DNA from: an uncultured delta proteobacterium
Lineage (GTDB): Bacteria; Myxococcota_A; Polyangia; Fen-1088
DNA: 64,000 bases
Direction: 5' to 3'
Assembly: GCA_963796685.1 (NCBI GenBank)
Contig: CAWCMR010000005.1
Span: 352,001-416,000 of the forward strand
The position numbers and the translations under genes are program-made. Of this stretch, positions 21,784 to 40,962 are shown piece by piece (the stretch's first letter is position 1; every line of letters starts with the position of its first letter). Under the pieces are notes generated by a model. It did no database searches. It had not been told where the DNA came from and was given only the letters and a program-made list of their open reading frames with translations.

Positions 21784-22941
21784 ATGCTGACCCTGCCCGC
21801 GCTCAAGATTCAGCAGTTTGCCAAGGAATTCTACCTTCTCAACCTTTCTGCCGGCGATGTGGAACGCCTGGTGCGCTTCGAGGTGCTGGGCGAGGCGGGG
21901 GCCGCGGGCGTCGAGGGCAAGAAGGCGCGCAAGCCGAAGGCCAGCGGCGTGAACTGGGGCGAGCTCGAGAAGAAGGTCGGCACCAGCGACAAGGCGTTCC
22001 AGCGGCCCATCATCCGCAAAAAGATCGACGAGCTGGCGCAGTACTATACGAGCTGCCGCGAGAGCGATGCCCTGCCCGCCATCCCCGGCTCGGTCATCCT
22101 GACCACCGACGAGAAGGTGTCGTTCACGGCCGCGGGCGCGAATCCTTTCCTGGGGTTGCTCCAGATCTCCGAGGAGGAGGGCACCTTGCGCGCGCTCGAC
22201 GGCCAGCACCGCCTGCTGGCCCTGGCCGCGCTGCTGCACGATCCGGCCACCAGCGATGAGGATCGTGCGGCGGCGCGCCGGCTGCAGGTGCCGGCCATTC
22301 TGTTCAGCGGCCTCAGCGACGACCAAACCGTCGAGATGTTCGTCACCATCAACGCCAAGCACACGCGCCTCAACGCCTCCCTGCTGGTCAGCCTCAGCGG
22401 GCGCCAGCTTTACGGCGACGCGCGCATGGGCAAGGTCCACGACGCCATCCGTGCGCTCAACAACCAGGCGTCGAGCCCGCTGGCGGGCCAGATCAAGTTG
22501 CTCGGCGTTGGCCCGGGGCGCGTGCAACAGGCGGGGCTGGCGCAAGAGATGAAACAGATGTTCGACGATTGGGAGCGCAAGGATCCGGCGCTGGTCGCTC
22601 GGTTCGAGGTCGAGGCCAAGGAGTTCTTCCTGGCCTACTTCAAGGAGATCGCGCGTGTGTTCGCCCAGGCCTGGGACGGCAAGAAGTATTCGATCAAGAG
22701 CACGATGGCCCTGCGGGCCTTCATCCAGGTGACGCCGGAGGTTCTCGGCCGCGCCCTCACGGCAGGGGGAGCCTCGCGCGCCGATGCCTTGCGGACCGTG
22801 CTCGCCCCCTGGGCCGAGCGCGTGGGCAGCCCGCGCTTCGAGACCGCCGGCGCCTGGCGAGCCAAGGTCGCGGGCGGCGGCAAGGAAACCACGCGCCTGC
22901 TCGCGCGTGAGCTGGTGGCCGCGCTGGGAGGTGCCGCGTGA
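21784..22941 (+). CDS. DGQHR domain protein (DndB/ParB-like superfamily)
   Basis: FQR, LDGQHRL, FVTIN motifs; AGGA RBS. Confidence 0.85.
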   Translation: MLTLPALKIQQFAKEFYLLNLSAGDVERLVRFEVLGEAGAAGVEGKKARKPKASGVNWGELEKKVGTSDKAFQRPIIRKKIDELAQYYTSCRESDALPAIPGSVILTTDEKVSFTAAGANPFLGLLQISEEEGTLRALDGQHRLLALAALLHDPATSDEDRAAARRLQVPAILFSGLSDDQTVEMFVTINAKHTRLNASLLVSLSGRQLYGDARMGKVHDAIRALNNQASSPLAGQIKLLGVGPGRVQQAGLAQEMKQMFDDWERKDPALVARFEVEAKEFFLAYFKEIARVFAQAWDGKKYSIKSTMALRAFIQVTPEVLGRALTAGGASRADALRTVLAPWAERVGSPRFETAGAWRAKVAGGGKETTRLLARELVAALGGAA

Positions 22942-24311: not shown

Positions 24312-25634
24312 CTACCCCGCCGCCCCCGCTGCCGCCAACAGCGCGCTGACGGCGTAGTCGTAGTCGAGCTGGGTGCCGTCCCACAACGGTTCGTTCGAGT
24401 CCGGGCCGAGGTCGAGCCCGCGGTCGACGGCCCATTCCGCCAGCCAAGCGTGGGCGTCGTCGACGTGCTCGCGTGGTGGCTCTGCCGGCAAAGGCTTGCC
24501 GGTTGGCGAGGTGAACAGCAATTCGCCCGCGGCAGAACGCGTGACGGACCAGCCGCCCTCGTGGATCAGATGGTGGTGGGCGGTACACAGGGTCACCAGG
24601 TTGTCCACGCTGGTTTCGCCACCGTGCAACCAGTGCCGAATGTGATGGCCGTGCAGGAAGCGGGTGTGGGTGCAACCAGGAAAGCGGCAGCCGCGGTCGC
24701 GGAGCGCGAGCACACGACGAATGGCGGGCGGAATGGTGCGGGTGCGGCGACCGATGTTCAATGGCGGGGTGTCCGATTGTGCGCCGCTGGCGCCGACGGC
24801 GAGCAGGCCACAGTCGCAAGCCACCCTGCGCAGGGTTTCCGGCGAGATTCGCGTGCCGTCGTCGAGCGTGCCGGCCATGGAGCCGTCCGGCCCGAGAGCG
24901 TCCTGATCCAGGTGCACCACGACCTGGAAGCGTTCGCCTCCGGTTCCCGTCCCTCGATTGCCGGCAAGGAAGGACTCGGCGAGAGCGACCATGCCGTCTG
25001 CGCGCGATGGCCAAGACGCTCCCGCGGAAGCGTCTGCGTGTCTGCCATCACACTTTCGCGCTTCCGCGGAAGCGGCGTCTGGGGCAGAAGCCTCATTTCC
25101 ACCATGAACCTCTCGCGCCCGCTCGACTGCGCGCATAACCAGATCCGTCTCGTCGGGTGACAGGACGATCTCGAGCTTCACCATTCCGCCCGGCAGCTCC
25201 CGCTGGCGGACGGAACGCTCCTCGGGCGATGGGGAATCGTCGGAAGCTTGGGCGGTTCGGTACCCGCGACACAAGCGTTCGAGCTGCGCGCCGGTTGCGA
25301 ACAAGGCCACCTCCAGTAGGCGCGCTTCATTGTCGGGCGTGGCGGCGCGGGTCAGGGCCCGCACCTTGGCATAGGACACCTTGCCCGACCGCAACGCCTC
25401 ATCGATGGCGGGCAACTTGCCGAGCGCGCGCGCCACGCGCACTTTCTCGCGCGCGGTGGTCGAATCCAAGCCCACCCGCCAAGCGAGCCAGTGCGCACAG
25501 GACACGGCGCCCTGTTCGTACCACCCACCGGCTTCGTCGAACTGCCGGATGCACTCGAGCAACCTGTGCGTGGCCGCATCGACGTGCGCCGACAAGCTCG
25601 CTATCTCCTGACCCAATTCCTCGACGGAAGACAT
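24312..25634 (-). CDS. DUF222 (13E12-repeat family) HNH endonuclease
   Basis: RDRGCRFPGC..HGHHIRHW.HGG.T..DNLVTLC..HH..IH; start ATG 25634 chosen from promoter position. Confidence 0.9.
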   Translation of the reverse strand: MSSVEELGQEIASLSAHVDAATHRLLECIRQFDEAGGWYEQGAVSCAHWLAWRVGLDSTTAREKVRVARALGKLPAIDEALRSGKVSYAKVRALTRAATPDNEARLLEVALFATGAQLERLCRGYRTAQASDDSPSPEERSVRQRELPGGMVKLEIVLSPDETDLVMRAVERAREVHGGNEASAPDAASAEARKCDGRHADASAGASWPSRADGMVALAESFLAGNRGTGTGGERFQVVVHLDQDALGPDGSMAGTLDDGTRISPETLRRVACDCGLLAVGASGAQSDTPPLNIGRRTRTIPPAIRRVLALRDRGCRFPGCTHTRFLHGHHIRHWLHGGETSVDNLVTLCTAHHHLIHEGGWSVTRSAAGELLFTSPTGKPLPAEPPREHVDDAHAWLAEWAVDRGLDLGPDSNEPLWDGTQLDYDYAVSALLAAAGAAG

Positions 25635-25640
25635 GGGCGA

Positions 25641-25669
25641 ACTATACAAATGTTCAGTTACACGATCAA
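25641..25669 (-). promoter_or_regulatory. Sigma70-type promoter TTGATC-N17-TATAGT overlapped by a LexA-like box CTGAACATTTGTATAG
   Basis: Exact 17-nt spacing; ATG begins 7 nt after -10 (leaderless); box at 25642-25657 resembles the Myxococcus LexA site. Confidence 0.65.
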
Positions 25670-25765: not shown

Positions 25766-27469
<1,704 letters not shown>

Positions 27470-31000: not shown

Positions 31001-34000
31001 GACGGCCCCATTGAAGCGAGCGTCACCGAGTCGTAGGCGGCGGCGAGAGTGATCTATCCGTCGTCCCCGGACGACGGCCCCATTGAAGCGCCAGGTGGCG
31101 CGCTCCCAGGTGGGCGTTCGTCGCAGCTATCCGTCGTCCCCGGACGACGGCCCCATTGAAGCAGCGTGGGCGTGTAGCTCGAGGATGCGGAGAAATCCAC
31201 TATCCGTCGTCCCCGGACGACGGCCCCATTGAAGCGCGGTCATCTATGCCCACAAGTACGGGATGATGTTCCTCTATCCGTCGTCCCCGGACGACGGCCC
31301 CATTGAAGCAACAATGACGAACACATTCGCCCCCGCACGTGTTCCTATCCGTCGTCCCCGGACGACGGCCCCATTGAAGCCTTTCTGTGGTGAGAGTTAG
31401 CGTCGGGGTAACTTCCCTATCCGTCGTCCCCGGACGACGGCCCCATTGAAGCCATGGAGTACCTGACAACATGACCAAGATCGAAGACTATCCGTCGTCC
31501 CCGGACGACGGCCCCATTGAAGCAGGACTCTGTGAACGTCAACGCGGCCACGTCGACTACTATCCGTCGTCCCCGGACGACGGCCCCATTGAAGCATCAA
31601 GGCGTTGCAAGTCAAGCCGGTGTCACAATAATGACTATCCGTCGTCCCCGGACGACGGCCCCATTGAAGCCTATGGTGCCTGTTACGACAAAGGCGGAGC
31701 CTATTGGCTATCCGTCGTCCCCGGACGACGGCCCCATTGAAGCCTCGATCGTGGCGCTCACCGGCGCTAGCCCGCCACCTATCCGTCGTCCCCGGACGAC
31801 GGCCCCATTGAAGCTCGGGTGAAGCAAGGGTTTCCGGCACGCGCCACGGAACTATCCGTCGTCCCCGGACGACGGCCCCATTGAAGCCAGCCTTTGCAAT
31901 ACGGCTATACGCTCAACGATCACCTATCCGTCGTCCCCGGACGACGGCCCCATTGAAGCATCGATTGCCTACCTCAGAAGGGATGGCCCGGGGACGCTAT
32001 CCGTCGTCCCCGGACGACGGCCCCATTGAAGCGGGGGATCTTTCAAAGGCTTCACCGGGGGCTGTATCTGGCTATCCGTCGTCCCCGGACGACGGCCCCA
32101 TTGAAGCATCGGCATTGGAACATCCCAACGGCGCGGATCCGGGTCTATCCGTCGTCCCCGGACGACGGCCCCATTGAAGCGCAAAGCCCGCGACGATGAT
32201 GAGGCGCGGTTCAACCCTATCCGTCGTCCCCGGACGACGGCCCCATTGAAGCGTAGAGGGGCGGGAAGGCTTTGGTCATGTTCTCACCTATCCGTCGTCC
32301 CCGGACGACGGCCCCATTGAAGCGGTACATGCGGGGAAGTGCGTCCCTCACCACATATTGACTATCCGTCGTCCCCGGACGACGGCCCCATTGAAGCCCG
32401 AGCGAGCTGCTGCAGGCCGTTGCTGTTGTTCACTATCCGTCGTCCCCGGACGACGGCCCCATTGAAGCGCTTGGGGTGGTGCCGTTTGGTCGGCAAGCAC
32501 GCCTGCTATCCGTCGTCCCCGGACGACGGCCCCATTGAAGCCATTTCACGAACAGGTCGTACGACACGCCGTCAAGCCTATCCGTCGTCCCCGGACGACG
32601 GCCCCATTGAAGCTTCTGACGGCGGTGGCGGCGGTGGCGGCGTAGGCGGCGGCTATCCGTCGTCCCCGGACGACGGCCCCATTGAAGCACAATGACGCTC
32701 GGTATCACGACATGCGCCGAAGCCACCTATCCGTCGTCCCCGGACGACGGCCCCATTGAAGCTTGATGGCATCCGCGCGCATCTTCGCATCCGTCGCACT
32801 GCTATCCGTCGTCCCCGGACGACGGCCCCATTGAAGCTTGCGCTACGTTGCGCCCGTTTGACCACACCGTGCTTGGCTATCCGTCGTCCCCGGACGACGG
32901 CCCCATTGAAGCATCCTACCAAAAGCGAGCGCTACCTGAAATCAGCGACAGCTATCCGTCGTCCCCGGACGACGGCCCCATTGAAGCCAATGGCCGTTTG
33001 GAGGCCTCTGTGCAATCGGCTTGGCTCTATCCGTCGTCCCCGGACGACGGCCCCATTGAAGCGTCTGTAGCTCTATGCTACATGTCTTGAGGGTCGTACC
33101 TATCCGTCGTCCCCGGACGACGGCCCCATTGAAGCTATTCGTGGTTACCGACCACGCGCGGATTCATTGTCAACTATCCGTCGTCCCCGGACGACGGCCC
33201 CATTGAAGCCTTACGACATGCGCCTTTCCTGGCCGCGTAGCCACCTATCCGTCGTCCCCGGACGACGGCCCCATTGAAGCCATCAACCCGCTGCTGAGCT
33301 AGCAGGAGGAGTCCCATGCTATCCGTCGTCCCCGGACGACGGCCCCATTGAAGCCGCGCCTGCGAATGCGGCTCGCCGGATTTCTTCCCCTATCCGTCGT
33401 CCCCGGACGACGGCCCCATTGAAGCACAGAACTCGAACGAGAAGTCGGAACCGAAGAAGCCAGCTATCCGTCGTCCCCGGACGACGGCCCCATTGAAGCT
33501 CCGACCTGGCGGAACGACAAGCGGGGCAGGGGTAAACTATCCGTCGTCCCCGGACGACGGCCCCATTGAAGCCCTCGGCTATCGCAGAGCTGCTACATCC
33601 ATCGACCCCCTATCCGTCGTCCCCGGACGACGGCCCCATTGAAGCACCGTGGCCTGGACCCGCCTCGCCGCCACTGCGGACCTATCCGTCGTCCCCGGAC
33701 GACGGCCCCATTGAAGCCGCGAGGCGGGTGCGCGGCTCGAAGCCTACGCGCGACTATCCGTCGTCCCCGGACGACGGCCCCATTGAAGCCGAAGTTTCCA
33801 CGTCAGGATACCGGCGGGTTTCATCCTATCCGTCGTCCCCGGACGACGGCCCCATTGAAGCGTTGAGATCGCGCTTCGATAGCGGATGGCCACGATGAGC
33901 TATCCGTCGTCCCCGGACGACGGCCCCATTGAAGCTCTCTACATCATGGGCGGAGCGGCGCTCTTGGTTGTGCTATCCGTCGTCCCCGGACGACGGCCCC

Positions 34001-35094
34001 ATTGAAGCACGCTCACGCTGACGGCGTCCAGACTGCGAGGGAGTGAACTATCCGTCGTCCCCGGACGACGGCCCCATTGAAGCTCGCCGACAACGACAAC
34101 TCCGGAGGTGCAGCATGAGCTATCCGTCGTCCCCGGACGACGGCCCCATTGAAGCTGAGGGGCAGGAGGGCGTGGGGAGGCCGAAAGGCGCCTATCCGTC
34201 GTCCCCGGACGACGGCCCCATTGAAGCGTGGGGTGCCGGGAGCCTTCGACCGTGCAGTCAGGGGCTATCCGTCGTCCCCGGACGACGGCCCCATTGAAGC
34301 GCCTTGAGGAGCTTCTTCAGCCGGTCGAGCCCGCCGCCTATCCGTCGTCCCCGGACGACGGCCCCATTGAAGCATGGTGATGTGGTCGAATTTGCGAGCC
34401 CGAGAAACAGCCTATCCGTCGTCCCCGGACGACGGCCCCATTGAAGCGATGGAATGGCGAGCTCGATTTCAGAGCGCTGGAGCACTATCCGTCGTCCCCG
34501 GACGACGGCCCCATTGAAGCTTCGAAGCCCCACGGGGGCGTCACAGCGTGAAGCCAGCTATCCGTCGTCCCCGGACGACGGCCCCATTGAAGCAGCTCTG
34601 CTTCAGCGAAAGCTTGGTCGGCCAAACCACCTATCCGTCGTCCCCGGACGACGGCCCCATTGAAGCGAGTACGAGTCCCGCGGCCTCGGCCAGGGTCGCC
34701 AGCCTATCCGTCGTCCCCGGACGACGGCCCCATTGAAGCGGTTGCGGGCGCGGCCTGGTATCTGACCAACGCAGCTATCCGTCGTCCCCGGACGACGGCC
34801 CCATTGAAGCACCCCAGGTCAGGCCCTATAGTACCCGTATAGTACCTATCCGTCGTCCCCGGACGACGGCCCCATTGAAGCGTGTTCACCCAGGCAAGGC
34901 GAGCCGTGCGCCCAATCTATCCGTCGTCCCCGGACGACGGCCCCATTGAAACCGAGGAAGCGTTCAGGCTCGCACTGACTCCGGAGCTATCCGTCGTCCC
35001 CGGACGACGGCCCCATTGAAGCGACATGACTGCGCGCTTTCTCCTCGGGCCGGCCAGGCTATCCGTCGTCCCCGGACGACGGCCCCATTGAAGC
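28006..35094 (+). CRISPR. CRISPR array: 98 repeats of CTATCCGTCGTCCCCGGACGACGGCCCCATTGAAGC (36 bp), 97 spacers of 34-40 bp
   Basis: Repeats enumerated by eye; CCGTCGTCC/GGACGACGG hairpin; ATTGAAGC 3' handle sets orientation; repeat 96 ends TTGAAAC. Confidence 0.99.
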
Positions 35095-35200
35095 CCAACG
35101 CCGCGGAGGTATCGAAACTTCACATAACTTTACGCGCCAGCAACACGTGCGCAGCAATCCCCCATCATCTTGAAAGCTTCACCCCGCCGAGGAGAGCTTC

Positions 35201-35545: not shown

Positions 35546-35656
35546 GCGCGCGCCTTCATCGGGACTGCGTGCGACTGGTACGTGGCGCAGAGGTCGTCGA
35601 TCGGATACTGCAAGAGATGTAGACATCGCTATTACAAGTGGAGGAGACTGTTCGCC

Positions 35657-36547
35657 ATGTCCGAGCCCACCTCAGTCAGTCCCATCACCGGCGTCGCCGC
35701 GGGAGTTCCCTTTCTCGCTTTACCGCCTTCAGTCGGTGCCGGCATGCCCGAAGGCAGCCAGCATGCCGTGCCCATCATCGTGGCCTGGCACCTCATGGAT
35801 CCACCTCGCAGCGAATCCGCCTTCGCCGCGGCCTTGCCGTTGAACGGTTTGAATGCGTGGCGACTGTACCTGGGGCTGCCCATGTGCGGCGCTCGCCTTC
35901 CCCCGGGCGGACCCGAGGCGCTGATGCGGCTCTTCTATCAGGACGCCGTGCTCAAAGGATACCAGCCCATCGCGAATCAGGGCGCCGCGGAGCTCCCCGC
36001 CGTGCTCAGGGAGGCTCGAGAGCGGTTGGGACTGGAGGACGGCCCTGTCGCGCTTGTTGGCGGCTCGATGGGCTCGATCATCGCGGAGCTCGTGCTGACC
36101 GAGTCTGCTCCGGCCGCCGGCATCGAGGTGGCGGCGGCGGTGCTGATCAGCCCGGTTGCACAGCTCCGCCCGATGGTTGAGGCCATTGGTCGCCGTTACA
36201 ACGTCACCTACCCGTGGTCCCCTGAAGCCATGCGCGTCGCCGAGCGGTTGGACTTCGTGGCACGCGTGGACGACATCGTGCGTGCCGGACAACCGGCCAT
36301 TCGGCTAATCGTCGGGGCCGAAGACGACCGCGAGGGATTCATCGAGCCCGCACTGCGGTTGCAGTCCGCGCTGACCAGGCGCTACAGCGATCGATCGCGA
36401 GTCGATCTGGTCATCATTCCGGGAATGGGGCACGCCTTGGCGGAAGAGCCGGGCATTGCGCCGGCACCGCAAACCGCGCATGCCGCCGTCGCGGACCAGC
36501 ACACCATGGCGTGGTTTCTCGCGCACCTGCCAGGCTGCAAGCCATGA
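35657..36547 (+). CDS. Alpha/beta hydrolase
   Basis: GGSMG nucleophile elbow, GAEDD acid, PGMGH histidine. Confidence 0.8.
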   Translation: MSEPTSVSPITGVAAGVPFLALPPSVGAGMPEGSQHAVPIIVAWHLMDPPRSESAFAAALPLNGLNAWRLYLGLPMCGARLPPGGPEALMRLFYQDAVLKGYQPIANQGAAELPAVLREARERLGLEDGPVALVGGSMGSIIAELVLTESAPAAGIEVAAAVLISPVAQLRPMVEAIGRRYNVTYPWSPEAMRVAERLDFVARVDDIVRAGQPAIRLIVGAEDDREGFIEPALRLQSALTRRYSDRSRVDLVIIPGMGHALAEEPGIAPAPQTAHAAVADQHTMAWFLAHLPGCKP

Positions 36548-36571
36548 GGCGTGGAGCGAGGAACGCTCCCG

Positions 36572-37639
36572 TTACACAGGAGCGGGCCTTTTCGACGTGA
36601 CCGCCAGAAGGCAATGGGCGTTGTGGTGAAAGGTGCCGGTGGTGGCCCAGCATAGGCTTTGACAGCCGCCCCGACAGATTGGGCCGAAGGCGCAGTCGCG
36701 ACAGCCGGGACCGAGGGCGGCGGGCGAGAAGGCGCGATTGTAGGCGAACGCGTGCGGATCGTCCCACAGCTCGGCGAGGCAGCGGGTTCTGAGGTTGCCC
36801 TCGTCGGCGGCGCCGGCGGGCAGCGAGAGACAGCCGCGCACGGTCCCGTCGCTGGTGATGCCGACGACCTGGATGCCGGCTGCGCAGCCGGTCCAGCAAC
36901 GCTCTATCAGGGCCCGGCCGGTGCGCAGGCGAGGCTCGTGGCGGCTCATATACCCGATGTTGTCTGCTGCTTGCACGAAGAAGGGCGCCCGGGCTTGCAG
37001 GGCCAGCAGTTGGCTTTCGAGCTCCGGCAAAGCGCTCGGCGGCAGGCAGAAGGAGCCGCCGTGGCTGCCGGAGTCGCCGCGGCGGGCACGCCCGTGGGGC
37101 ATGGTGAGCTGGAGTTGCCAGCCGGAGAAGCCATGGGCGATCAGGAGGTCGAGCGTATCGTCCAACCGGTGCAAGTTGGCGCTGTTGACTTGCGTGACGG
37201 CGCCGATACGCATCCCGCGTTCGCGCAGGGCCTGGGCGCCCTTCAGGGTCCGCGCCAAGCCGTCCGATACGCCACGCAGACCGTCGTGCACGGCGGGCGG
37301 CCCGTCGATGGAGAAGGTCACGGCCGAGAACCCGCAAGCAATGAGCGTGTCGGCCTGGGCCGCCACGGACAGACCGTTGGTGATGAGCTCGAGCTGCATG
37401 CCGGCCTCGCGAACGGCCCGCGCCAGGGTGGGCCAGTCGGGTCGCAACAGGGGCTCGCCGCCGGAGAAGGTCACGGATTGACAGCCGAGGCCCGCCAGCT
37501 CGCCGATCAGGGCCAGCCCCTCGGCCGTGTCGAGCTCGCGGGCCCGGGCTTTGCCGGCATCCGATCCGCAGTGCACGCAACGGGCGTCGCAGGCAAGGGT
37601 CAGCTCCCACACGCAGATCCTGAGTGGCCAGTGGTCCAT
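36572..37639 (-). CDS. Radical SAM/SPASM enzyme B (splicease/PlpX-like clade)
   Basis: VWELTLACDARCVHC, SGGEP, ADNIGY, GCAAG..DGTVRGC, CRDC..C.GGC; start overlaps upstream stop. Confidence 0.9.
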   Translation of the reverse strand: MDHWPLRICVWELTLACDARCVHCGSDAGKARARELDTAEGLALIGELAGLGCQSVTFSGGEPLLRPDWPTLARAVREAGMQLELITNGLSVAAQADTLIACGFSAVTFSIDGPPAVHDGLRGVSDGLARTLKGAQALRERGMRIGAVTQVNSANLHRLDDTLDLLIAHGFSGWQLQLTMPHGRARRGDSGSHGGSFCLPPSALPELESQLLALQARAPFFVQAADNIGYMSRHEPRLRTGRALIERCWTGCAAGIQVVGITSDGTVRGCLSLPAGAADEGNLRTRCLAELWDDPHAFAYNRAFSPAALGPGCRDCAFGPICRGGCQSLCWATTGTFHHNAHCLLAVTSKRPAPV

Positions 37640-38766
37640 CACGTACCGGTGGGTGGCGAGGTCGGGGCCCGGGCCGACGCGGAATTCCCGGCGCGCTGAA
37701 TGCAGTAGGGATTGTCGTAGATGGTTCCCGTCACCGCATAGGCCATGGTGGTGCAACCGGCACGACAAAGGCGCCTGTAGGGACAAGTCTTGCAGAAGCC
37801 TTCGAGCAGCCGTTCGTCCCAGCGGGTGTTGTAGGCGAAGCGCTCGGCCTCGCGCCAGATGGTGCCAAGCGGGGTCTGGCGAATGTTGCCCACGACGAAC
37901 TCGCGCGGGTGCGACGGGCAACCCTTCACGTCGCCGTTCGAGCAAAAGGCGATCACCTGGCAGCCCGCCATACACCCCGCCCAGAACGACTCGACGCCCA
38001 TCACCGACCCGCGCAGCGCCGGCTCGTGTCGACCGTAGTAGCCGATGTTGTCTGCCACCGCGATGCGCATGCGTCCGTCGCGGACCAGGCTTGCGAGCAG
38101 ATCTTGCAAGCCCGAGATGCGCTCGGGCTCGACCAGGTATTGGTCGCGGTAGCTCAGCAAGCGCCCGAGCGGCATGCACAGTTGCACCTGCCACAGGTCC
38201 ACGCCAAGCCCCACCAGTTGCTCGTACATGCGACCGAGGTCGTCGATATTGCCCCGATGCACCTGCGTGATGACGGCCGTCTTCAGGGGCGATGCGGCCA
38301 CCCGCCGGATCGCCGCCAGGACAGCGTCGTAGCTCGATGCCGACCCGTGCGCCGGCACCCGGATGCGATCGTGGACGCTGCGCTCGCCGTCCAGCGACAG
38401 CGAGACGCCCTTCATCCCGAGCCGCACCATCCGATCGATCACACTCGAGCTCAGGCGAAGGCCATTCGTGATGAGACCAACGTTCATCCCCAGCCCGATG
38501 AGCCGTTCGGCAAGGGTGGCCCAGTCCGAGCGGACCAGGGGCTCTCCCCCGGTCAGGAGCACTTCGAGGCAGCCGATCTCGGCCAGCTGCACCGCCAGGT
38601 CGAGCGCCTCCGAGGTGGTGAGCTCGTCGGCCGCGGCATGCCCCGAGGCCGACTCACAATGAATGCAGCGCAGATTGCAGGCCTCGGTGATCTCCCAGAA
38701 GCAGCTACGTGGAACACGCGGGAGCAGGGTTGGCGTGGCCTCGCCAGGCTCGCGGTGTGGATCCAT
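37639..38766 (-). CDS. Radical SAM/SPASM enzyme A (splicease/PlpX-like clade)
   Basis: WEITEACNLRCIHC, TGGEP, ADNIGYY, GCMAG..NGDVKGCPS, CKTC..CRAGC..NPYC. Confidence 0.9.
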   Translation of the reverse strand: MDPHREPGEATPTLLPRVPRSCFWEITEACNLRCIHCESASGHAAADELTTSEALDLAVQLAEIGCLEVLLTGGEPLVRSDWATLAERLIGLGMNVGLITNGLRLSSSVIDRMVRLGMKGVSLSLDGERSVHDRIRVPAHGSASSYDAVLAAIRRVAASPLKTAVITQVHRGNIDDLGRMYEQLVGLGVDLWQVQLCMPLGRLLSYRDQYLVEPERISGLQDLLASLVRDGRMRIAVADNIGYYGRHEPALRGSVMGVESFWAGCMAGCQVIAFCSNGDVKGCPSHPREFVVGNIRQTPLGTIWREAERFAYNTRWDERLLEGFCKTCPYRRLCRAGCTTMAYAVTGTIYDNPYCIQRAGNSASARAPTSPPTGT

Positions 38767-38780
38767 GGTTGGCGCGCCTG

Positions 38781-39881
38781 CTAGTCGGGAAACGAGACGC
38801 CCTTGTACACCGGGACGGCGCAGAGCATGTAGCCTGGGCCGTTCTTTACATACTGGAGATCGGTGGAGGTCGGGGCTGCGTTGAGCCCGTTGCGCGTCGT
38901 GATGCCGTTCGGCTGACAACACGAGGTCAGGTTCAGGAGCATCTGCGAGATCTCTTCCGGCGTCCCCGTGGCAAAGAGCTGCGTGAGGCTGGTCGTCCAA
39001 TCCGTGGTCAGCGCGGCGAAGCACTGACACAGCCGGCTCTTCTGATCCGTCGAGAGGCTCGACTCGCCGATGGCTTGGTCGAGCTCGGTGGTCACGCTCT
39101 GGGTGCAGGCCGGCGCTGCGTCGGTGGAGGGCGAGCCGTCTGTGACGAGATCGACGCTCCCCATCGCGTCCACGGCCGTGTCGCGCGATTCGGGGGCATC
39201 CATGCCGCCATCCGCGCCGCCCATCCCTCCGGTGCCGCCCACGCCGCCCATCCCTCCGGCCCCCGCCACGCCGCCCATCCCTCCGGCCCCCGCCACGCCG
39301 CCCATCCCTCCGGTGCCGCCCGCGCCGCCCTTGCCTGTCGTACTACCACCGGCACCCGCGGCGCCGCCCGAGCCGCCCACCGTCGCATCGACAGCGACCG
39401 TTCCACCCGCGCCGCTCCCGCCGGTTCCCGTCGTGCCGCTGTGGTTCGAGTTGTCGCCGCACCCCGCGGCTGCCAGTCCGAGCAGCAAGAAGCCCCCCAG
39501 CACGGCCCCGGACAGTTTGCGCGTGAAATCCCGTCGAGCCGGCCCGGCGCTGCTCCCCCCGACAAGCAGAGCATCCCGCAGCTCGTCCACCAGCTCGTCG
39601 GCCTTCCACGAGCTGAGCAGCTCGGCCTGGGCCGTCACCGGTCGGAGTGGTCGCTGCGAATCGACGGCGCTTGCGACGACATCGCGGAGCAGTCCCTTGA
39701 GGGGCTGCCAAAATTCAGGATCGTTCCGTCGCCGTCGCAGCAGAGCGTAGAATTCGTCGTACGTCTCTTCCAACCCCGACCAAGGACGGAGGGCTGCGCC
39801 CTGGCCAGCCAGGAAGGTACGAACCCGCTGGGTGATGGTGGGGACTATGACAGGCGTATTCATGTCCACCAGCGTACGCAT
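38781..39881 (-). CDS. Putative rSAM substrate: N-terminal domain, internal Tat-lipoprotein signal, Gly-rich linker, Cys-rich domain, C-terminal VYKG
   Basis: RRDF...LAAAGC at about aa 115-141; ends AVPVYKGVSFPD, 14 bp before rSAM A. Confidence 0.7.
   Translation of the reverse strand: MRTLVDMNTPVIVPTITQRVRTFLAGQGAALRPWSGLEETYDEFYALLRRRRNDPEFWQPLKGLLRDVVASAVDSQRPLRPVTAQAELLSSWKADELVDELRDALLVGGSSAGPARRDFTRKLSGAVLGGFLLLGLAAAGCGDNSNHSGTTGTGGSGAGGTVAVDATVGGSGGAAGAGGSTTGKGGAGGTGGMGGVAGAGGMGGVAGAGGMGGVGGTGGMGGADGGMDAPESRDTAVDAMGSVDLVTDGSPSTDAAPACTQSVTTELDQAIGESSLSTDQKSRLCQCFAALTTDWTTSLTQLFATGTPEEISQMLLNLTSCCQPNGITTRNGLNAAPTSTDLQYVKNGPGYMLCAVPVYKGVSFPD
39216..39323. repeat. 27-bp coding tandem repeat x4 (GGMGGVAGA-type)
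   Basis: gccgcccatccctccgg(ccccc/tgcc).. units in the linker. Confidence 0.85.
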
Positions 39882-40086
39882 GGCGCGCTGCCGAGTCTAC
39901 CAGCCTGTGCAAGGCACTGCCTGGCCGCTGTGATCCCAGCCACGACCCTGGTTGGCCAACGACAGCCGAGAGTCGCAACAATTCGCCGACCCCGACGTCG
40001 ACCTCGATATCGCCCACCGCGATTGTCTTGGACTTACCCAGGAAAGGGGGCAGCCTTCTCCTATCAAATTGCAGGAGGCAATCACC

Positions 40087-40218
40087 ATGGGCGACAAATC
40101 ACCGAAAGCGAAGAACAAGGCCAGGAAGCAAGACACTGCGGACAAGAATCAAAAGGCGTCGGCTGCTGCGGCGAAGATGTCGCCGTCACCGGTGTTTCCC
40201 GGAAAGAAGGCCCGGTAG
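40087..40218 (+). CDS. Small Lys/Ala-rich protein (MGDKSPK...), 43 aa
   Basis: GGAGG RBS about 8 nt upstream; highly basic. Confidence 0.55.
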   Translation: MGDKSPKAKNKARKQDTADKNQKASAAAAKMSPSPVFPGKKAR

Positions 40219-40299
40219 ACTCGGGTTTGGTGCTGCGCCCAAGCGACGGTGGTGTTAGGCTCTGCCGGCCGGAGAAACCACCTGGTCCAGAGTCGCACG

Positions 40300-40962
40300 G
40301 TGCATGACATCATCTCCTTTGCCCTCGTCGCGTTCCCGTCGCTGGTCGTAATCGTCAACCCGGTGACGGTCACGTCGGTTTTCATCACCCTCACGGCCAA
40401 CGCCACGCCGGAGGCGAAGCGAGCGATCATTCGGAAGACCACGCTTACCGCGTTCGTCGTCCTCATGGTCTTTGCCGTCTCCGGAACCCTCATCTTCAAG
40501 TTCTTCTCGATTACCATCGGCGCCTTCCAAGTTGCCGGAGGCATCATCCTCTTCTCCGTCGCCATGGGAATGCTTCACGCGAGGACCTCGCGGACGAAGC
40601 AGACACCGGAGGAGATGGACGAAGCGATGACCCGTGATGACATCGCCGTCGTTCCGCTGGCGATCCCGATCGTCTCCGGTCCGGGTGCCATCACCACGGT
40701 CATTGTCCTTTCCGGCGAGACCCGCGCCATTCCCAACATGGCGATCCTCTTTCTCGCCATCGTCGTTGTCATGGCCATTGTCTTCGTGATGTTGCGGAAC
40801 GCGGCCAGAATCCAGAGGTTCATGGGCCCTTCCGGCCTCAACATCACGACACGGCTGATGGGCCTGGTTCTCGCCGCCGTCGCCGTTCAGTTCGTCGTCC
40901 ACGGCATCGAAAGCGTCCTGCCGGAGATCGTGTCGGCGATCCACACCGGACCGAAACCGTAG
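40300..40962 (+). CDS. MarC-family membrane protein
   Basis: IVNP, AFQVAGGIIL, IAVVPLAIP..GPGAI, TRLMGL. Confidence 0.9.
   Translation: MHDIISFALVAFPSLVVIVNPVTVTSVFITLTANATPEAKRAIIRKTTLTAFVVLMVFAVSGTLIFKFFSITIGAFQVAGGIILFSVAMGMLHARTSRTKQTPEEMDEAMTRDDIAVVPLAIPIVSGPGAITTVIVLSGETRAIPNMAILFLAIVVVMAIVFVMLRNAARIQRFMGPSGLNITTRLMGLVLAAVAVQFVVHGIESVLPEIVSAIHTGPKP

Follow-up and report, generated by a model that had tools for sequence, protein, structure and literature searches.

A candidate maturation cassette of two splicease-like radical SAM enzymes and a conserved lipobox protein in uncultured Myxococcota

A three-gene cassette encoding a lipobox protein and two radical S-adenosylmethionine (SAM) enzymes was analyzed in a 64,000-nucleotide stretch of DNA, here called the window, from an uncultured delta proteobacterium (GTDB lineage Bacteria; Myxococcota_A; Polyangia; Fen-1088; GenBank assembly GCA_963796685.1, contig CAWCMR010000005.1, positions 352,001 to 416,000 of the forward strand, read 5' to 3'). 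Judged from sequence and conservation, the probable product of the cassette is an envelope protein with a chemical modification, of an undescribed kind. The reading that is cautiously favored, with slightly more confidence than doubt, is that the upstream protein, named SUB, is modified at Tyr359 by the two non-redundant splicease-like enzymes, rSAM-A and rSAM-B, and is then exported and lipidated. That SUB is the substrate and its C-terminal tail the site is likely, and that both enzymes are needed is fairly probable. The tail and the gene order recur in about 100 homologues, far beyond chance.

Layout of the cassette

The three genes follow each other on the minus strand:

39881..38781, minus strand: SUB precursor, an open reading frame (ORF) of 366 aa with its stop codon TAG at 38783-38781

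38766..37639, minus strand: rSAM-A, 375 aa, stop codon TGA at 37641-37639

37639..36572, minus strand: rSAM-B, 355 aa, start codon ATG at 37639-37637

SUB and rSAM-A are separated by 14 nt (38780-38767), and the TGA of rSAM-A and the ATG of rSAM-B overlap by one base (TGATG). The ORF coordinates thus agree with an earlier note on this DNA, made from the sequence alone, which had described three tightly linked genes with this gap and overlap. The start codon of SUB is ambiguous; it may be Met7 (39863), giving a protein of 360 aa, because homologues begin there (M-x-T-P-x-I-V-P-T-I-T-Q-R-V-R). Pfam domains of the window neighbors revealed neither a PqqD gene or other recognition element (RRE) for peptides that are synthesized ribosomally and modified post-translationally (RiPPs) nor a clear peptidase gene beside the cassette, as the note had also stated. 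Likewise, no exporter gene or leader peptidase gene is present with the cassette.

The SUB protein and its conserved tail

SUB was divided into five parts, all encoded on the minus strand:

39543..39881, minus strand: residues 1-113, helical N-terminal domain that may serve as a cytoplasmic leader or for recognition

39459..39542, minus strand: residues 114-141, signal-peptide-like segment with RRDFTRK, a hydrophobic stretch and the lipobox L-A-A-A-G-C, ending at Cys141

39126..39458, minus strand: residues 142-252, Gly/Ala/Thr-rich low-complexity linker (predicted local distance difference test, pLDDT, <50)

38811..39125, minus strand: residues 253-357, helical, Cys-containing C-terminal domain (AlphaFold2 helices at 265-321, pLDDT ~90)

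38790..38810, minus strand: residues 358-364, the V-Y-K-G-V-S-F tail, proposed modification site (Tyr359 codon 38807-38805)

The protein ends in ...GPGYMLCAVPVYKGVSFPD (longer stretch ...CAVPVYKGVSFPD). With the C-terminal 116 residues as query, phmmer found a family of 65 clusters at E<=0.001 among 1.84 billion representative proteins. The motif Y-x-[G/A]-[V/I/A]-x-[F/L] was found at most 16 residues from the C-terminus in 62 of the 65 representatives, and the three representatives without it lack the usual C-terminal end too. All 35 complete homologues from the fetched loci described below carry the motif. When conservation was scored on 42 aligned full-length members, Y359, V362 and F364 proved invariant, with G361 conserved to at least 90%. 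The residue after the tail Tyr is Lys in 75 of 97 sequences and otherwise Arg, Met, Ala, Val or Leu, and 0-13 residues follow the tail Phe. The earlier note had staked its proposal on a YKG(V)xF tail shared by the upstream genes, and this tail did prove to be conserved. Mycofactocin-like C-terminal chemistry was considered and ruled out on account of the 0-13 residues beyond the tail and the lower scores of MftC.

SUB contains no YG dipeptide, as was already seen at first reading, and the conserved site of its family is Y-[K/R/M/A/V/L]-[G/A] instead of the X-Y-G of splice sites. The splice tag of the PlpA2 core is ..A-V-A-A-x-Y-G-V-V-F-P and that of the PlpA3 core is P-I-R-P-x-Y-G-L-P-I (PMC10533398 Table 1). 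When the SUB tail A-V-P-V-Y-K-G-V-S-F-P is set against the PlpA2 tag, G-V-x-F-P is common to both and an extra Lys stands between Tyr and Gly. In sequence, the tail resembles a splice site with one added residue after Tyr.

The N-terminal domain (~115 aa) was predicted by AlphaFold2 to be helical with a pLDDT of ~88-96, and its conserved columns include R21, F23, L24, P33 and W58. No fold match for the SUB model was found in the PDB by Foldseek at E<=0.001 (E>1). A VIA wide search with the model returned only generic helical bundles, with a best Z of 4.8, and the best score in a search of the ESM Atlas, 0.75, was uninformative. Pfam and NCBIfam models, searched with the 42 SUB proteins at E<=1, gave low-complexity matches only, such as SD-repeat adhesin models.

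The signal-like segment reads RRDFTRK, then LSGAVLGGFLLLGLAAAG, then C141, and conforms to the lipobox pattern [LVI][ASTVI][GAS]C after a charged n-region and an h-region. No signal peptide was recognized at the N-terminus of the protein itself, where the helical domain precedes the lipobox. Cys141 is invariant in 42 of 42 sequences, and in the family the lipobox Cys lies at a median position of 136 (range 103-147). The n-region of SUB, A-R-R-D-F-T-R-K, was compared with the consensus of the twin-arginine translocation (Tat) pathway, S/T-R-R-x-F-L-K. Of 82 family members, only 21 have RR ahead of the lipobox and another 7 have KR or RK; in the closest relatives R-T or R-A stands there. The RRDFTRK twin-arginine motif is a trait of this copy and is not conserved in the family. 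The earlier description of SUB as a lipoprotein with a Tat signal is thus correct as regards the lipobox, although this lies at residue 141 and not near the N-terminus, while the Tat label does not hold for the family.

Among homologues the linker varies in length and is Gly-rich, Asp/Thr/Ser-rich or Pro-rich. In the C-terminal domain C287, W295, L299, F303 and L315 are invariant. SUB has six Cys residues after the lipobox, as do 53 of 82 family members; another 15 of the 82 have eight, and the range is 2-14. Such a number of cysteines could suggest thioether or other crosslinks of the sactipeptide or ranthipeptide kind, with the tail serving only as a recognition or sorting motif. SPASM enzymes do include thioether formers, and weak matches to SCIFF, PapB and StsB were seen. 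However, C287 is the only Cys beyond the lipobox Cys that is invariant in the 42-sequence alignment, and the models of thioether maturases score three to four times lower than the splicease model. The even Cys counts in most members, together with the invariant C141, fit export and ordinary disulfide formation. Crosslinks among the cysteines, which had been put forward as an alternative in the earlier note, are disfavored above all because one homologue (L041, from genome G027) has no Cys after the lipobox and yet keeps the tail and both enzymes. This explanation is considered highly improbable.

The named records with SUB homologues are metagenome-assembled genomes (MAGs), labeled Myxococcota, Deltaproteobacteria, Myxococcales or Polyangiaceae, with three labeled Rickettsiales, one Dehalococcoidia and one plain 'bacterium' as the odd labels. 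No cultured organism with SUB turned up among the named records. By these searches, SUB defines an unannotated protein family, so far confined to uncultured Myxococcota-type MAGs.

Conservation of the gene order

Whole-genome searches of 60 relatives, together with one scan of species-representative genomes using a 12-sequence SUB alignment, yielded 32 loci with a SUB homologue. Thirty of these were assessable, as two (L049 and L064) end right at SUB. Both an A-type and a B-type enzyme lie directly downstream of SUB in 25 of the 30 loci. The three genes are complete in 22 of them; B is cut by a contig end in L044 and L053, and A at the contig start in L047. In one further locus, L039, A is cut by a contig end. 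The remaining loci are of a single type, which is A in L055, L061 and L046, the last with a B-like match of 58 aa, and B in L042. The missing type is supplied by another locus of the same genome, namely L042 and L046 for each other in G010, and L060 and L058 for L055 and L061, respectively, in the two CSMAG MAGs. These results bear out the earlier view of the upstream protein as a conserved partner of the enzyme pair, an account which had overlooked the ~115-aa helical N-terminal domain of SUB.

The arrangement of the loci also bears on whether the two enzymes work together. A and B could be self-sufficient maturases of the same chemistry, each tuned to its own precursor copy or conformational state, and the SUB-A-B operon could have lost or relocated a second precursor. 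The order SUB-A-SUB-B in L065 and the order A (cut by the contig end), SUB, B in L047 would suit this explanation, as would the loci with SUB and A only (L055, L061) or SUB and B only (L042). In locus L040 (G037:C63) the genes for A, A and B come after a tandem of three SUB genes, so that three precursors stand with three enzymes; two SUB genes, then A and B, are found in L067. In addition, one enzyme is enough in the paralogous cassettes described below. On the other hand, both types are kept in 25 of the 30 assessable loci, 20 of which have a single SUB in the fetched stretch, and the source genome itself has one SUB, one A and one B. One-type loci were matched by a locus of the other type in every genome examined, and the A and B clades show matching sub-groupings in a tree of 79 enzymes, as expected of joint inheritance. 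Independent action of A and B is therefore regarded as quite unlikely, and joint action on one precursor is preferred.

Apart from a gene of ~500 aa in 5 of 31 loci, no other recurrent gene family was found near the cassette. This gene lies within a few kb of the cassette in L036, L037, L038, L041 and L050 and is absent from the window.

The two radical SAM enzymes

The Pfam domains of rSAM-A are Radical_SAM (23-181) and SPASM (263-327), and those of rSAM-B are Radical_SAM (from residue 3) and SPASM; no other domain was found in either. With the radical SAM domain starting at residue 23 or 3, neither enzyme has a fused RRE. The motifs FWEITEACNLRCIHC / VWELTLACDARCVHC were found, together with ADNIGY. 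Across orthologues, 26 of A-type and 24 of B-type, the WEIT/WELT..C, CxxxCxxC and ADNIGY motifs and the SPASM cysteines are conserved; the CxxxCxxC and SPASM cysteines are invariant there or conserved to at least 90%. The motifs reported as intact in the earlier note are thus intact across the orthologues as well. Both enzymes look catalytically active, because all cluster cysteines are kept across these 24-26 orthologues.

In NCBIfam the best match of rSAM-A was TIGR04103 with 244.6 bits (cut-off 725), followed by TIGR03913 with 238.6 bits (cut-off 591.75). rSAM-B scored 197.5 and 186.9 bits with the same models, both also below the cut-offs. All other families gave at most 155 bits for both enzymes. 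Among these was TIGR04133, 'rSAM_w_lipo', with 151.5 bits for rSAM-A and 111.1 bits for rSAM-B; its short name suggests a radical SAM/SPASM enzyme with a lipoprotein, but both enzymes are far below its cut-off of 425. TIGR04103 is presumably the same as IPR026482, the PlpX family. Consistent with this, the annotated Nostoc TIGR04103 enzyme adjoins a Nif11 precursor ending in ..A-L-Y-G-L-P-P-E-L-F. Passages of PMC11002830 place PlpX in IPR026482.

rSAM-B is 37-38% identical to A-type enzymes. rSAM-A has 463 homologues at E<=1e-20, and the best 120 of the 463 bear only generic radical SAM/SPASM labels. The nearest solved relatives found by sequence search in the PDB were SkfB (106 bits) and PqqE (89 bits). 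In a quick maximum-likelihood tree, the A clade, the B clade and a third clade had supports of 98, 96 and 93 in the Shimodaira-Hasegawa-like approximate likelihood ratio test (SH-aLRT), and their shared superclade 93. The third clade holds the Nostoc TIGR04103 and Azospirillum TIGR03913 references and the single-enzyme Myxococcota paralogues. Two other SPASM enzymes of this genome are placed far from the superclade. The three clades were recovered again, with supports of 82 (A), 91 (B) and 95 (third), in the larger, likewise quick, tree of 79 enzymes. A and B are, as far as scores and trees indicate, two old paralogous clades beside the clade of annotated spliceases. Because their best matches stay below the cut-offs and because of this tree placement, they are best described as kin of spliceases and not as members of the curated family. 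The earlier label of splicease-like enzymes is supported by TIGR04103 as the best match and by the superclade common with the annotated Nostoc member.

The same scores have a bearing on the reaction. With the same substrate and site, the chemistry could be centered on Tyr but differ from tyramine excision. It might consist of a C-C or C-O crosslink of Tyr359 to Val362 or Phe364 (cyclophane- or darobactin-like), epimerization or hydroxylation of Val or Phe by one of the enzymes, or excision of a larger unit through the extra residue. Such a reaction would agree with the Y-x-G spacing in place of X-Y-G, with the invariance of all three of Y359, V362 and F364, and with two intact enzymes, which suit two separate steps. 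It would also agree with the position of A and B as separate old clades outside the annotated splicease clade, and rSAM-A does show weaker matches to the crosslinking maturases DynA (70 bits), StsB (88 bits) and SkfB (74 bits). However, the splicease and GDL-motif families are the strongest matches by far (245 and 239 bits against at most 155). The G-V-x-F-P that follows Tyr is also found in the PlpA2 tag, where, as far as PMC10533398 describes, Val and Phe are not modified, so the invariance of Val and Phe in SUB may reflect recognition only. The residue directly after Tyr varies (Lys, Arg, Met, Ala, Val, Leu), which excludes a crosslink to the side chain at this +1 position. A chemistry other than tyramine excision is considered unlikely, though it deserves some weight; tyramine excision itself is proposed tentatively, with somewhat more doubt than confidence.

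It is also conceivable that SUB is not a substrate at all. The enzyme pair would then act on a small molecule, as AhbC/AhbD and NirJ1/NirJ2 do, and SUB would be a membrane-anchored accessory such as a receptor, a scaffold or an anti-sigma-like protein, with its tail serving for binding or sorting. Both enzymes do match the models of AhbD, NirJ and mycofactocin, at 84-155 bits. Furthermore, a cytoplasmic helical N-terminal domain, one hydrophobic segment and an outside domain are an arrangement known from single-pass signaling proteins. Against this, the cassette is accompanied by no further conserved pathway gene and adjoined by no sigma factor gene, and ribosomal peptides are the substrates of all the closest enzyme families. 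The tail is similar to a proven splice tag, and paralogous enzymes adjoin lipoproteins with repeated Tyr motifs. A non-substrate role of SUB is accordingly thought very improbable.

Paralogous cassettes in the lineage

Further paralogous enzymes are encoded in the genome:

G000:C25:842337-844148, plus strand: paralogous cassette L003/L068, a 200-aa Gly-rich lipoprotein (L-Y-G, V-Y-G, V-Y-G) and a radical SAM enzyme 43% identical to rSAM-A

G000:C25:1584917-1586563, minus strand: paralogous radical SAM enzyme L093, 548 aa with a C-terminal extension of ~170 aa (orthologues L074-L079 and L094-L097)

G000:C25:31209-32786, minus strand: third paralogous cassette, a 146-aa lipoprotein without Y-G and a 377-aa radical SAM enzyme

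G000:C12:50786-51406, minus strand: truncated radical SAM paralogue, 206 aa, corresponding to rSAM-A residues 158-358 (35% identity) and following an 889-aa ORF

All five radical SAM paralogues of the genome scored 211-246 bits with TIGR04103, all below the cut-off. The truncated paralogue may be a gene fragment or a fusion. Orthologues of the first cassette in the genus have three to six x-Y-G sites. Upstream of the L093 relatives lies a lipoprotein of 90-180 aa in which x-Y-M-A-(Q/P)-x-P is repeated two to five times, finally at the C-terminus, and Y-G is absent; a three-frame read of the region upstream of L093 revealed no such precursor ORF in its own genome. The 146-aa lipoprotein of the third cassette contains the motifs V-P-Y-L-V-A-L-P, A-Y-V-P-I-P and L-V-Y-I-Y-Y-M-Q. 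In a relative (L081, G047:C652) the precursor is a 387-aa lipoprotein-like protein with eight Cys-rich D-x-D-x-D-G repeats, each ending in a Tyr motif; Y-G-V-P, Y-G-P-P, Y-A-A-P, Y-M-G-P and Y-M-A-V are mixed in this one protein. An NCBIfam scan of 13 paralogous precursors gave no match.

The single-enzyme cassettes are similar to the SUB cassette in having a radical SAM enzyme of the same superclade (42-44% identical to rSAM-A) with a precursor directly upstream, and in the lipobox and low-complexity linker of that precursor. They differ in having one enzyme, an N-region of ~20 aa in contrast to the 115-aa domain of SUB, and three to six repeated sites in contrast to one C-terminal site. Unlike SUB, their precursors have no helical Cys-rich domain. 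When SUB was compared with the paralogous precursors by hhalign, only the signal/lipobox segment aligned, with a probability of 15%. A shared N-terminal helix (QRVRxFL in SUB, RVERFL in the paralogous precursors) had been considered and was dropped on this result.

In all paralogous precursors a lipobox Cys follows an extended, Arg-rich N-region, which suggests that lipoprotein precursors for splicease-like enzymes are a theme of the lineage. The SUB/A/B cassette is, as judged by its gene content and domains, the most elaborate form of this theme in the lineage. The pairing of splicease-like enzymes with a lipoprotein had been recognized in the earlier note, but the paralogous single-enzyme cassettes in the genome had been overlooked, and the system is no one-off.

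Comparison with known systems

The closest described systems are those of the spliceotides, namely PlpX/PlpY-PlpA, PcpXY-PcpA and the binary RhaX-RhaA. As in the SUB cassette, a radical SAM/SPASM gene directly follows a ribosomal precursor gene, the enzymes are related through TIGR04103, and a Tyr with a small residue lies in a flexible C-terminal stretch, in PlpA2 also with the G-V-x-F-P context. No RRE gene accompanies the binary spliceases, which is a further likeness; they dock by means of a leader helix instead of an RRE (PMC11414181). The cassette differs in its scores below the cut-offs, its separate clades, Y-x-G instead of Y-G, and two enzymes instead of one. In contrast to spliceotide precursors, SUB has no Pfam or NCBIfam match, including the Nif11 and NHLP leaders, and its 115-aa domain is new, its lipobox internal and its Cys-rich domain folded.

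The GDL-motif (DUF1843) systems with TIGR03913 enzymes are the second-best family (239 and 187 bits), and their reference belongs to the same superclade. In these systems, however, the Tyr site is near the N-terminus of peptides of ~60 aa, with the helical GDL domain after it, and there is one enzyme of ~475-520 aa. rSAM-A and rSAM-B fall below the TIGR03913 cut-off, and SUB has no Pfam match; in the reference loci, by comparison, DUF1843 peptides are annotated. Three DUF1843 peptides of Azospirillum lipoferum 4B (plasmid AZO_p3, L099) have the Tyr motifs Y-G-G, Y-G-V and Y-M-A at the same position, and those of an Aureibacter tunicatorum plasmid (L101) have Y-A-A, Y-A-A and Y-G-A there. A residue other than Gly after Tyr thus recurs in kin systems, since Y-M-A or Y-A-A is found in DUF1843 peptides as well as in the paralogous lipoproteins.

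Modification before export has precedents of another kind. anSME and QhpD/QhpC are cytoplasmic SPASM enzymes that modify proteins which are exported afterwards, and by analogy they resemble the proposal in joining a cytoplasmic SPASM enzyme to a target that has an export signal and works outside the cytoplasm. Their chemistry is the formation of formylglycine or of Cys-Asp/Glu thioethers, and neither lipoprotein precursors nor paired enzymes are involved. anSME (PDB 4k37) is distant in sequence, with 65 bits against the A-type profile.

Proposed maturation of SUB

The three genes would together be a self-contained cassette that matures a RiPP-like precursor of protein size. From its N-terminus the precursor would comprise a ~115-aa helical domain, the signal segment to Cys141, a disordered linker, a helical Cys-rich domain and the flexible tail V-Y-K-G-V-S-F-P-D. 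rSAM-A and rSAM-B, each with a role of its own, would act on the tail at Tyr359 while SUB is still in the cytoplasm; enzymes with Fe-S clusters and SAM are cytoplasmic, so modification should precede export. A further step, at the Tyr359 site or beside it, would fall to the second enzyme. Splicease-type editing of Tyr359 is regarded as the most likely chemistry. The N-terminal domain would probably be the docking or activating element, in the role of the leader helix or the Y protein of known spliceases (PMC11414181), and it is a good candidate because it is the only conserved cytoplasmic part of SUB. After modification SUB would be exported and lipidated at Cys141. Signal peptidase II would cut before Cys141 and remove the N-terminal 'leader' and the signal peptide together, which would explain the absence of a leader peptidase gene; confidence in this step is evenly balanced. 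The product would be an envelope-tethered lipoprotein with a modified C-terminal tail. As a speculation, a ketoamide tail on such a lipoprotein could be an electrophilic, protease-directed warhead.

Complex formation was predicted for two SUB chains, 1-125 and 255-366, with rSAM-A. The score was 0.35, as compared with 0.02 for the best of three controls and 0.02 when the N-terminal domain chain was replaced, and the verdict was weak support. The runs agreed in at least 55% of contacts, with a partner pLDDT of at least 84. Of 80 solved complexes 58 attained the mark applied, as did 2 of 110 mismatched pairs; at scores of 0.60 or lower it was attained by only 7 of the 80 but by both mismatches. 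The predicted complex, which came without a reported interface, is a hint, not a proof, that the N-terminal domain docks on rSAM-A.

Several points weigh against modification of Tyr359 by two cooperating splicease-like enzymes. For a complex that was not already a likely guess, a weak-support verdict errs more often than not. X-Y-G is the defining site of spliceases and is absent from SUB. The TIGR04103 scores of A and B reach only about one third of the cut-off, and both lie outside the clade of the annotated members. The trees come from quick searches in which SH-aLRT was the sole support measure, and the tree with the references includes one annotated TIGR04103 member. A single Tyr would be served by two enzymes, while the paralogous Y-M-A cassettes manage with one. 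The SUB-A-SUB-B order (L065, probably L047) and the A-only and B-only loci would allow one precursor per enzyme. Lipoproteins do not typically have their signal segment 115 residues into the chain, as SUB does, and if this segment acted as a signal anchor during translation, the cytoplasmic enzymes would not reach the tail. Finally, hhalign found no homology between the N-terminal domain of SUB and the short N-termini of the paralogous precursors.

A bolder version of the proposal sees in SUB a new class of edited lipoprotein. In such a class an extended signal sequence would serve as RiPP leader with a 115-aa docking domain and would be removed by signal peptidase II, co-evolving enzymes would perform a two-step Tyr-x-Gly reaction other than tyramine splicing, and the result would be a reactive, membrane-tethered tail, for example a protease trap. 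Taken as a whole, this version is doubtful.

Neighboring genes and other features of the window

The cassette is bounded by two genes on the opposite strand:

40249-40962, plus strand: MarC gene, divergent

35582-36547, plus strand: ORF with an alpha/beta-hydrolase fold, convergent, with matches below the Pfam cut-offs

A GT4 glycosyltransferase gene and a methyltransferase gene are further neighbors. None of these four genes recurs in the homologous loci. A scan of 36300-40300 found no promoters or terminators. Among sequencing runs, no RNA run was listed as containing this DNA, and three DNA runs had small shares (0.07-0.13).

A CRISPR (clustered regularly interspaced short palindromic repeats) array of ~47 copies of a 36-nt repeat (CTATCCGTCGTCCCCGGACGACGGCCCCATTGAAGC) with a period of ~73 lies at 31559-35096, ~1.5 kb from the cassette. 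The six-frame translation of the array contains ORFs whose peptide motifs recur; these ORFs are artifacts of its repeats. Upstream of the array, at 25766-27469 on the plus strand, a Cas4-Cas1 fusion of 567 aa is encoded (Cas_Cas1 4.9e-87, Cas_Cas4 8.7e-16). Among unannotated ORFs lie the genes of a DndB-like protein (21784-22941, plus strand; PF14072, 2.3e-14) and of a DUF222/HNH endonuclease protein (24312-25649, minus strand), with unannotated ORFs to either side. This region may be a defense island beside the CRISPR locus.

Significance

As far as the models searched are concerned, no curated model covers SUB or assigns A or B to a named family. To our knowledge, spliceases are the only route to ribosomal alpha-keto-beta-amino acids. 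Parts of PMC11414181, PMC10533398 and PMC11626197 describe spliceases as being under development for protein engineering and for the discovery of protease inhibitors, and spliceotides inhibit serine and cysteine proteases according to passages of the last of these (PMC11626197). Published genome mining for spliceases relied on the frequency of YG motifs near SPASM genes, as stated in sections of a review (PMC10849128), and a Y-x-G family may have been missed by such mining. Lipoprotein cassettes with Y-G may already figure in the main splicease survey; for the two-enzyme Y-x-G family this is less likely. PMC10533398 quotes 27 characterized and 939 predicted spliceases, numbers that probably stem from that survey. 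A full-text search, which extended neither to supplements nor to that survey, found no literature on lipoprotein spliceotides or on lipobox precursors of SPASM enzymes.

If the proposal is true, the site rule of splicease-like enzymes would be widened, and a natural case would be at hand of a folded, exported lipoprotein as the substrate of such enzymes. It would also be a case of leader removal without a dedicated peptidase, and it would pose the mechanistic puzzle of why two paralogous radical enzymes serve one Tyr.

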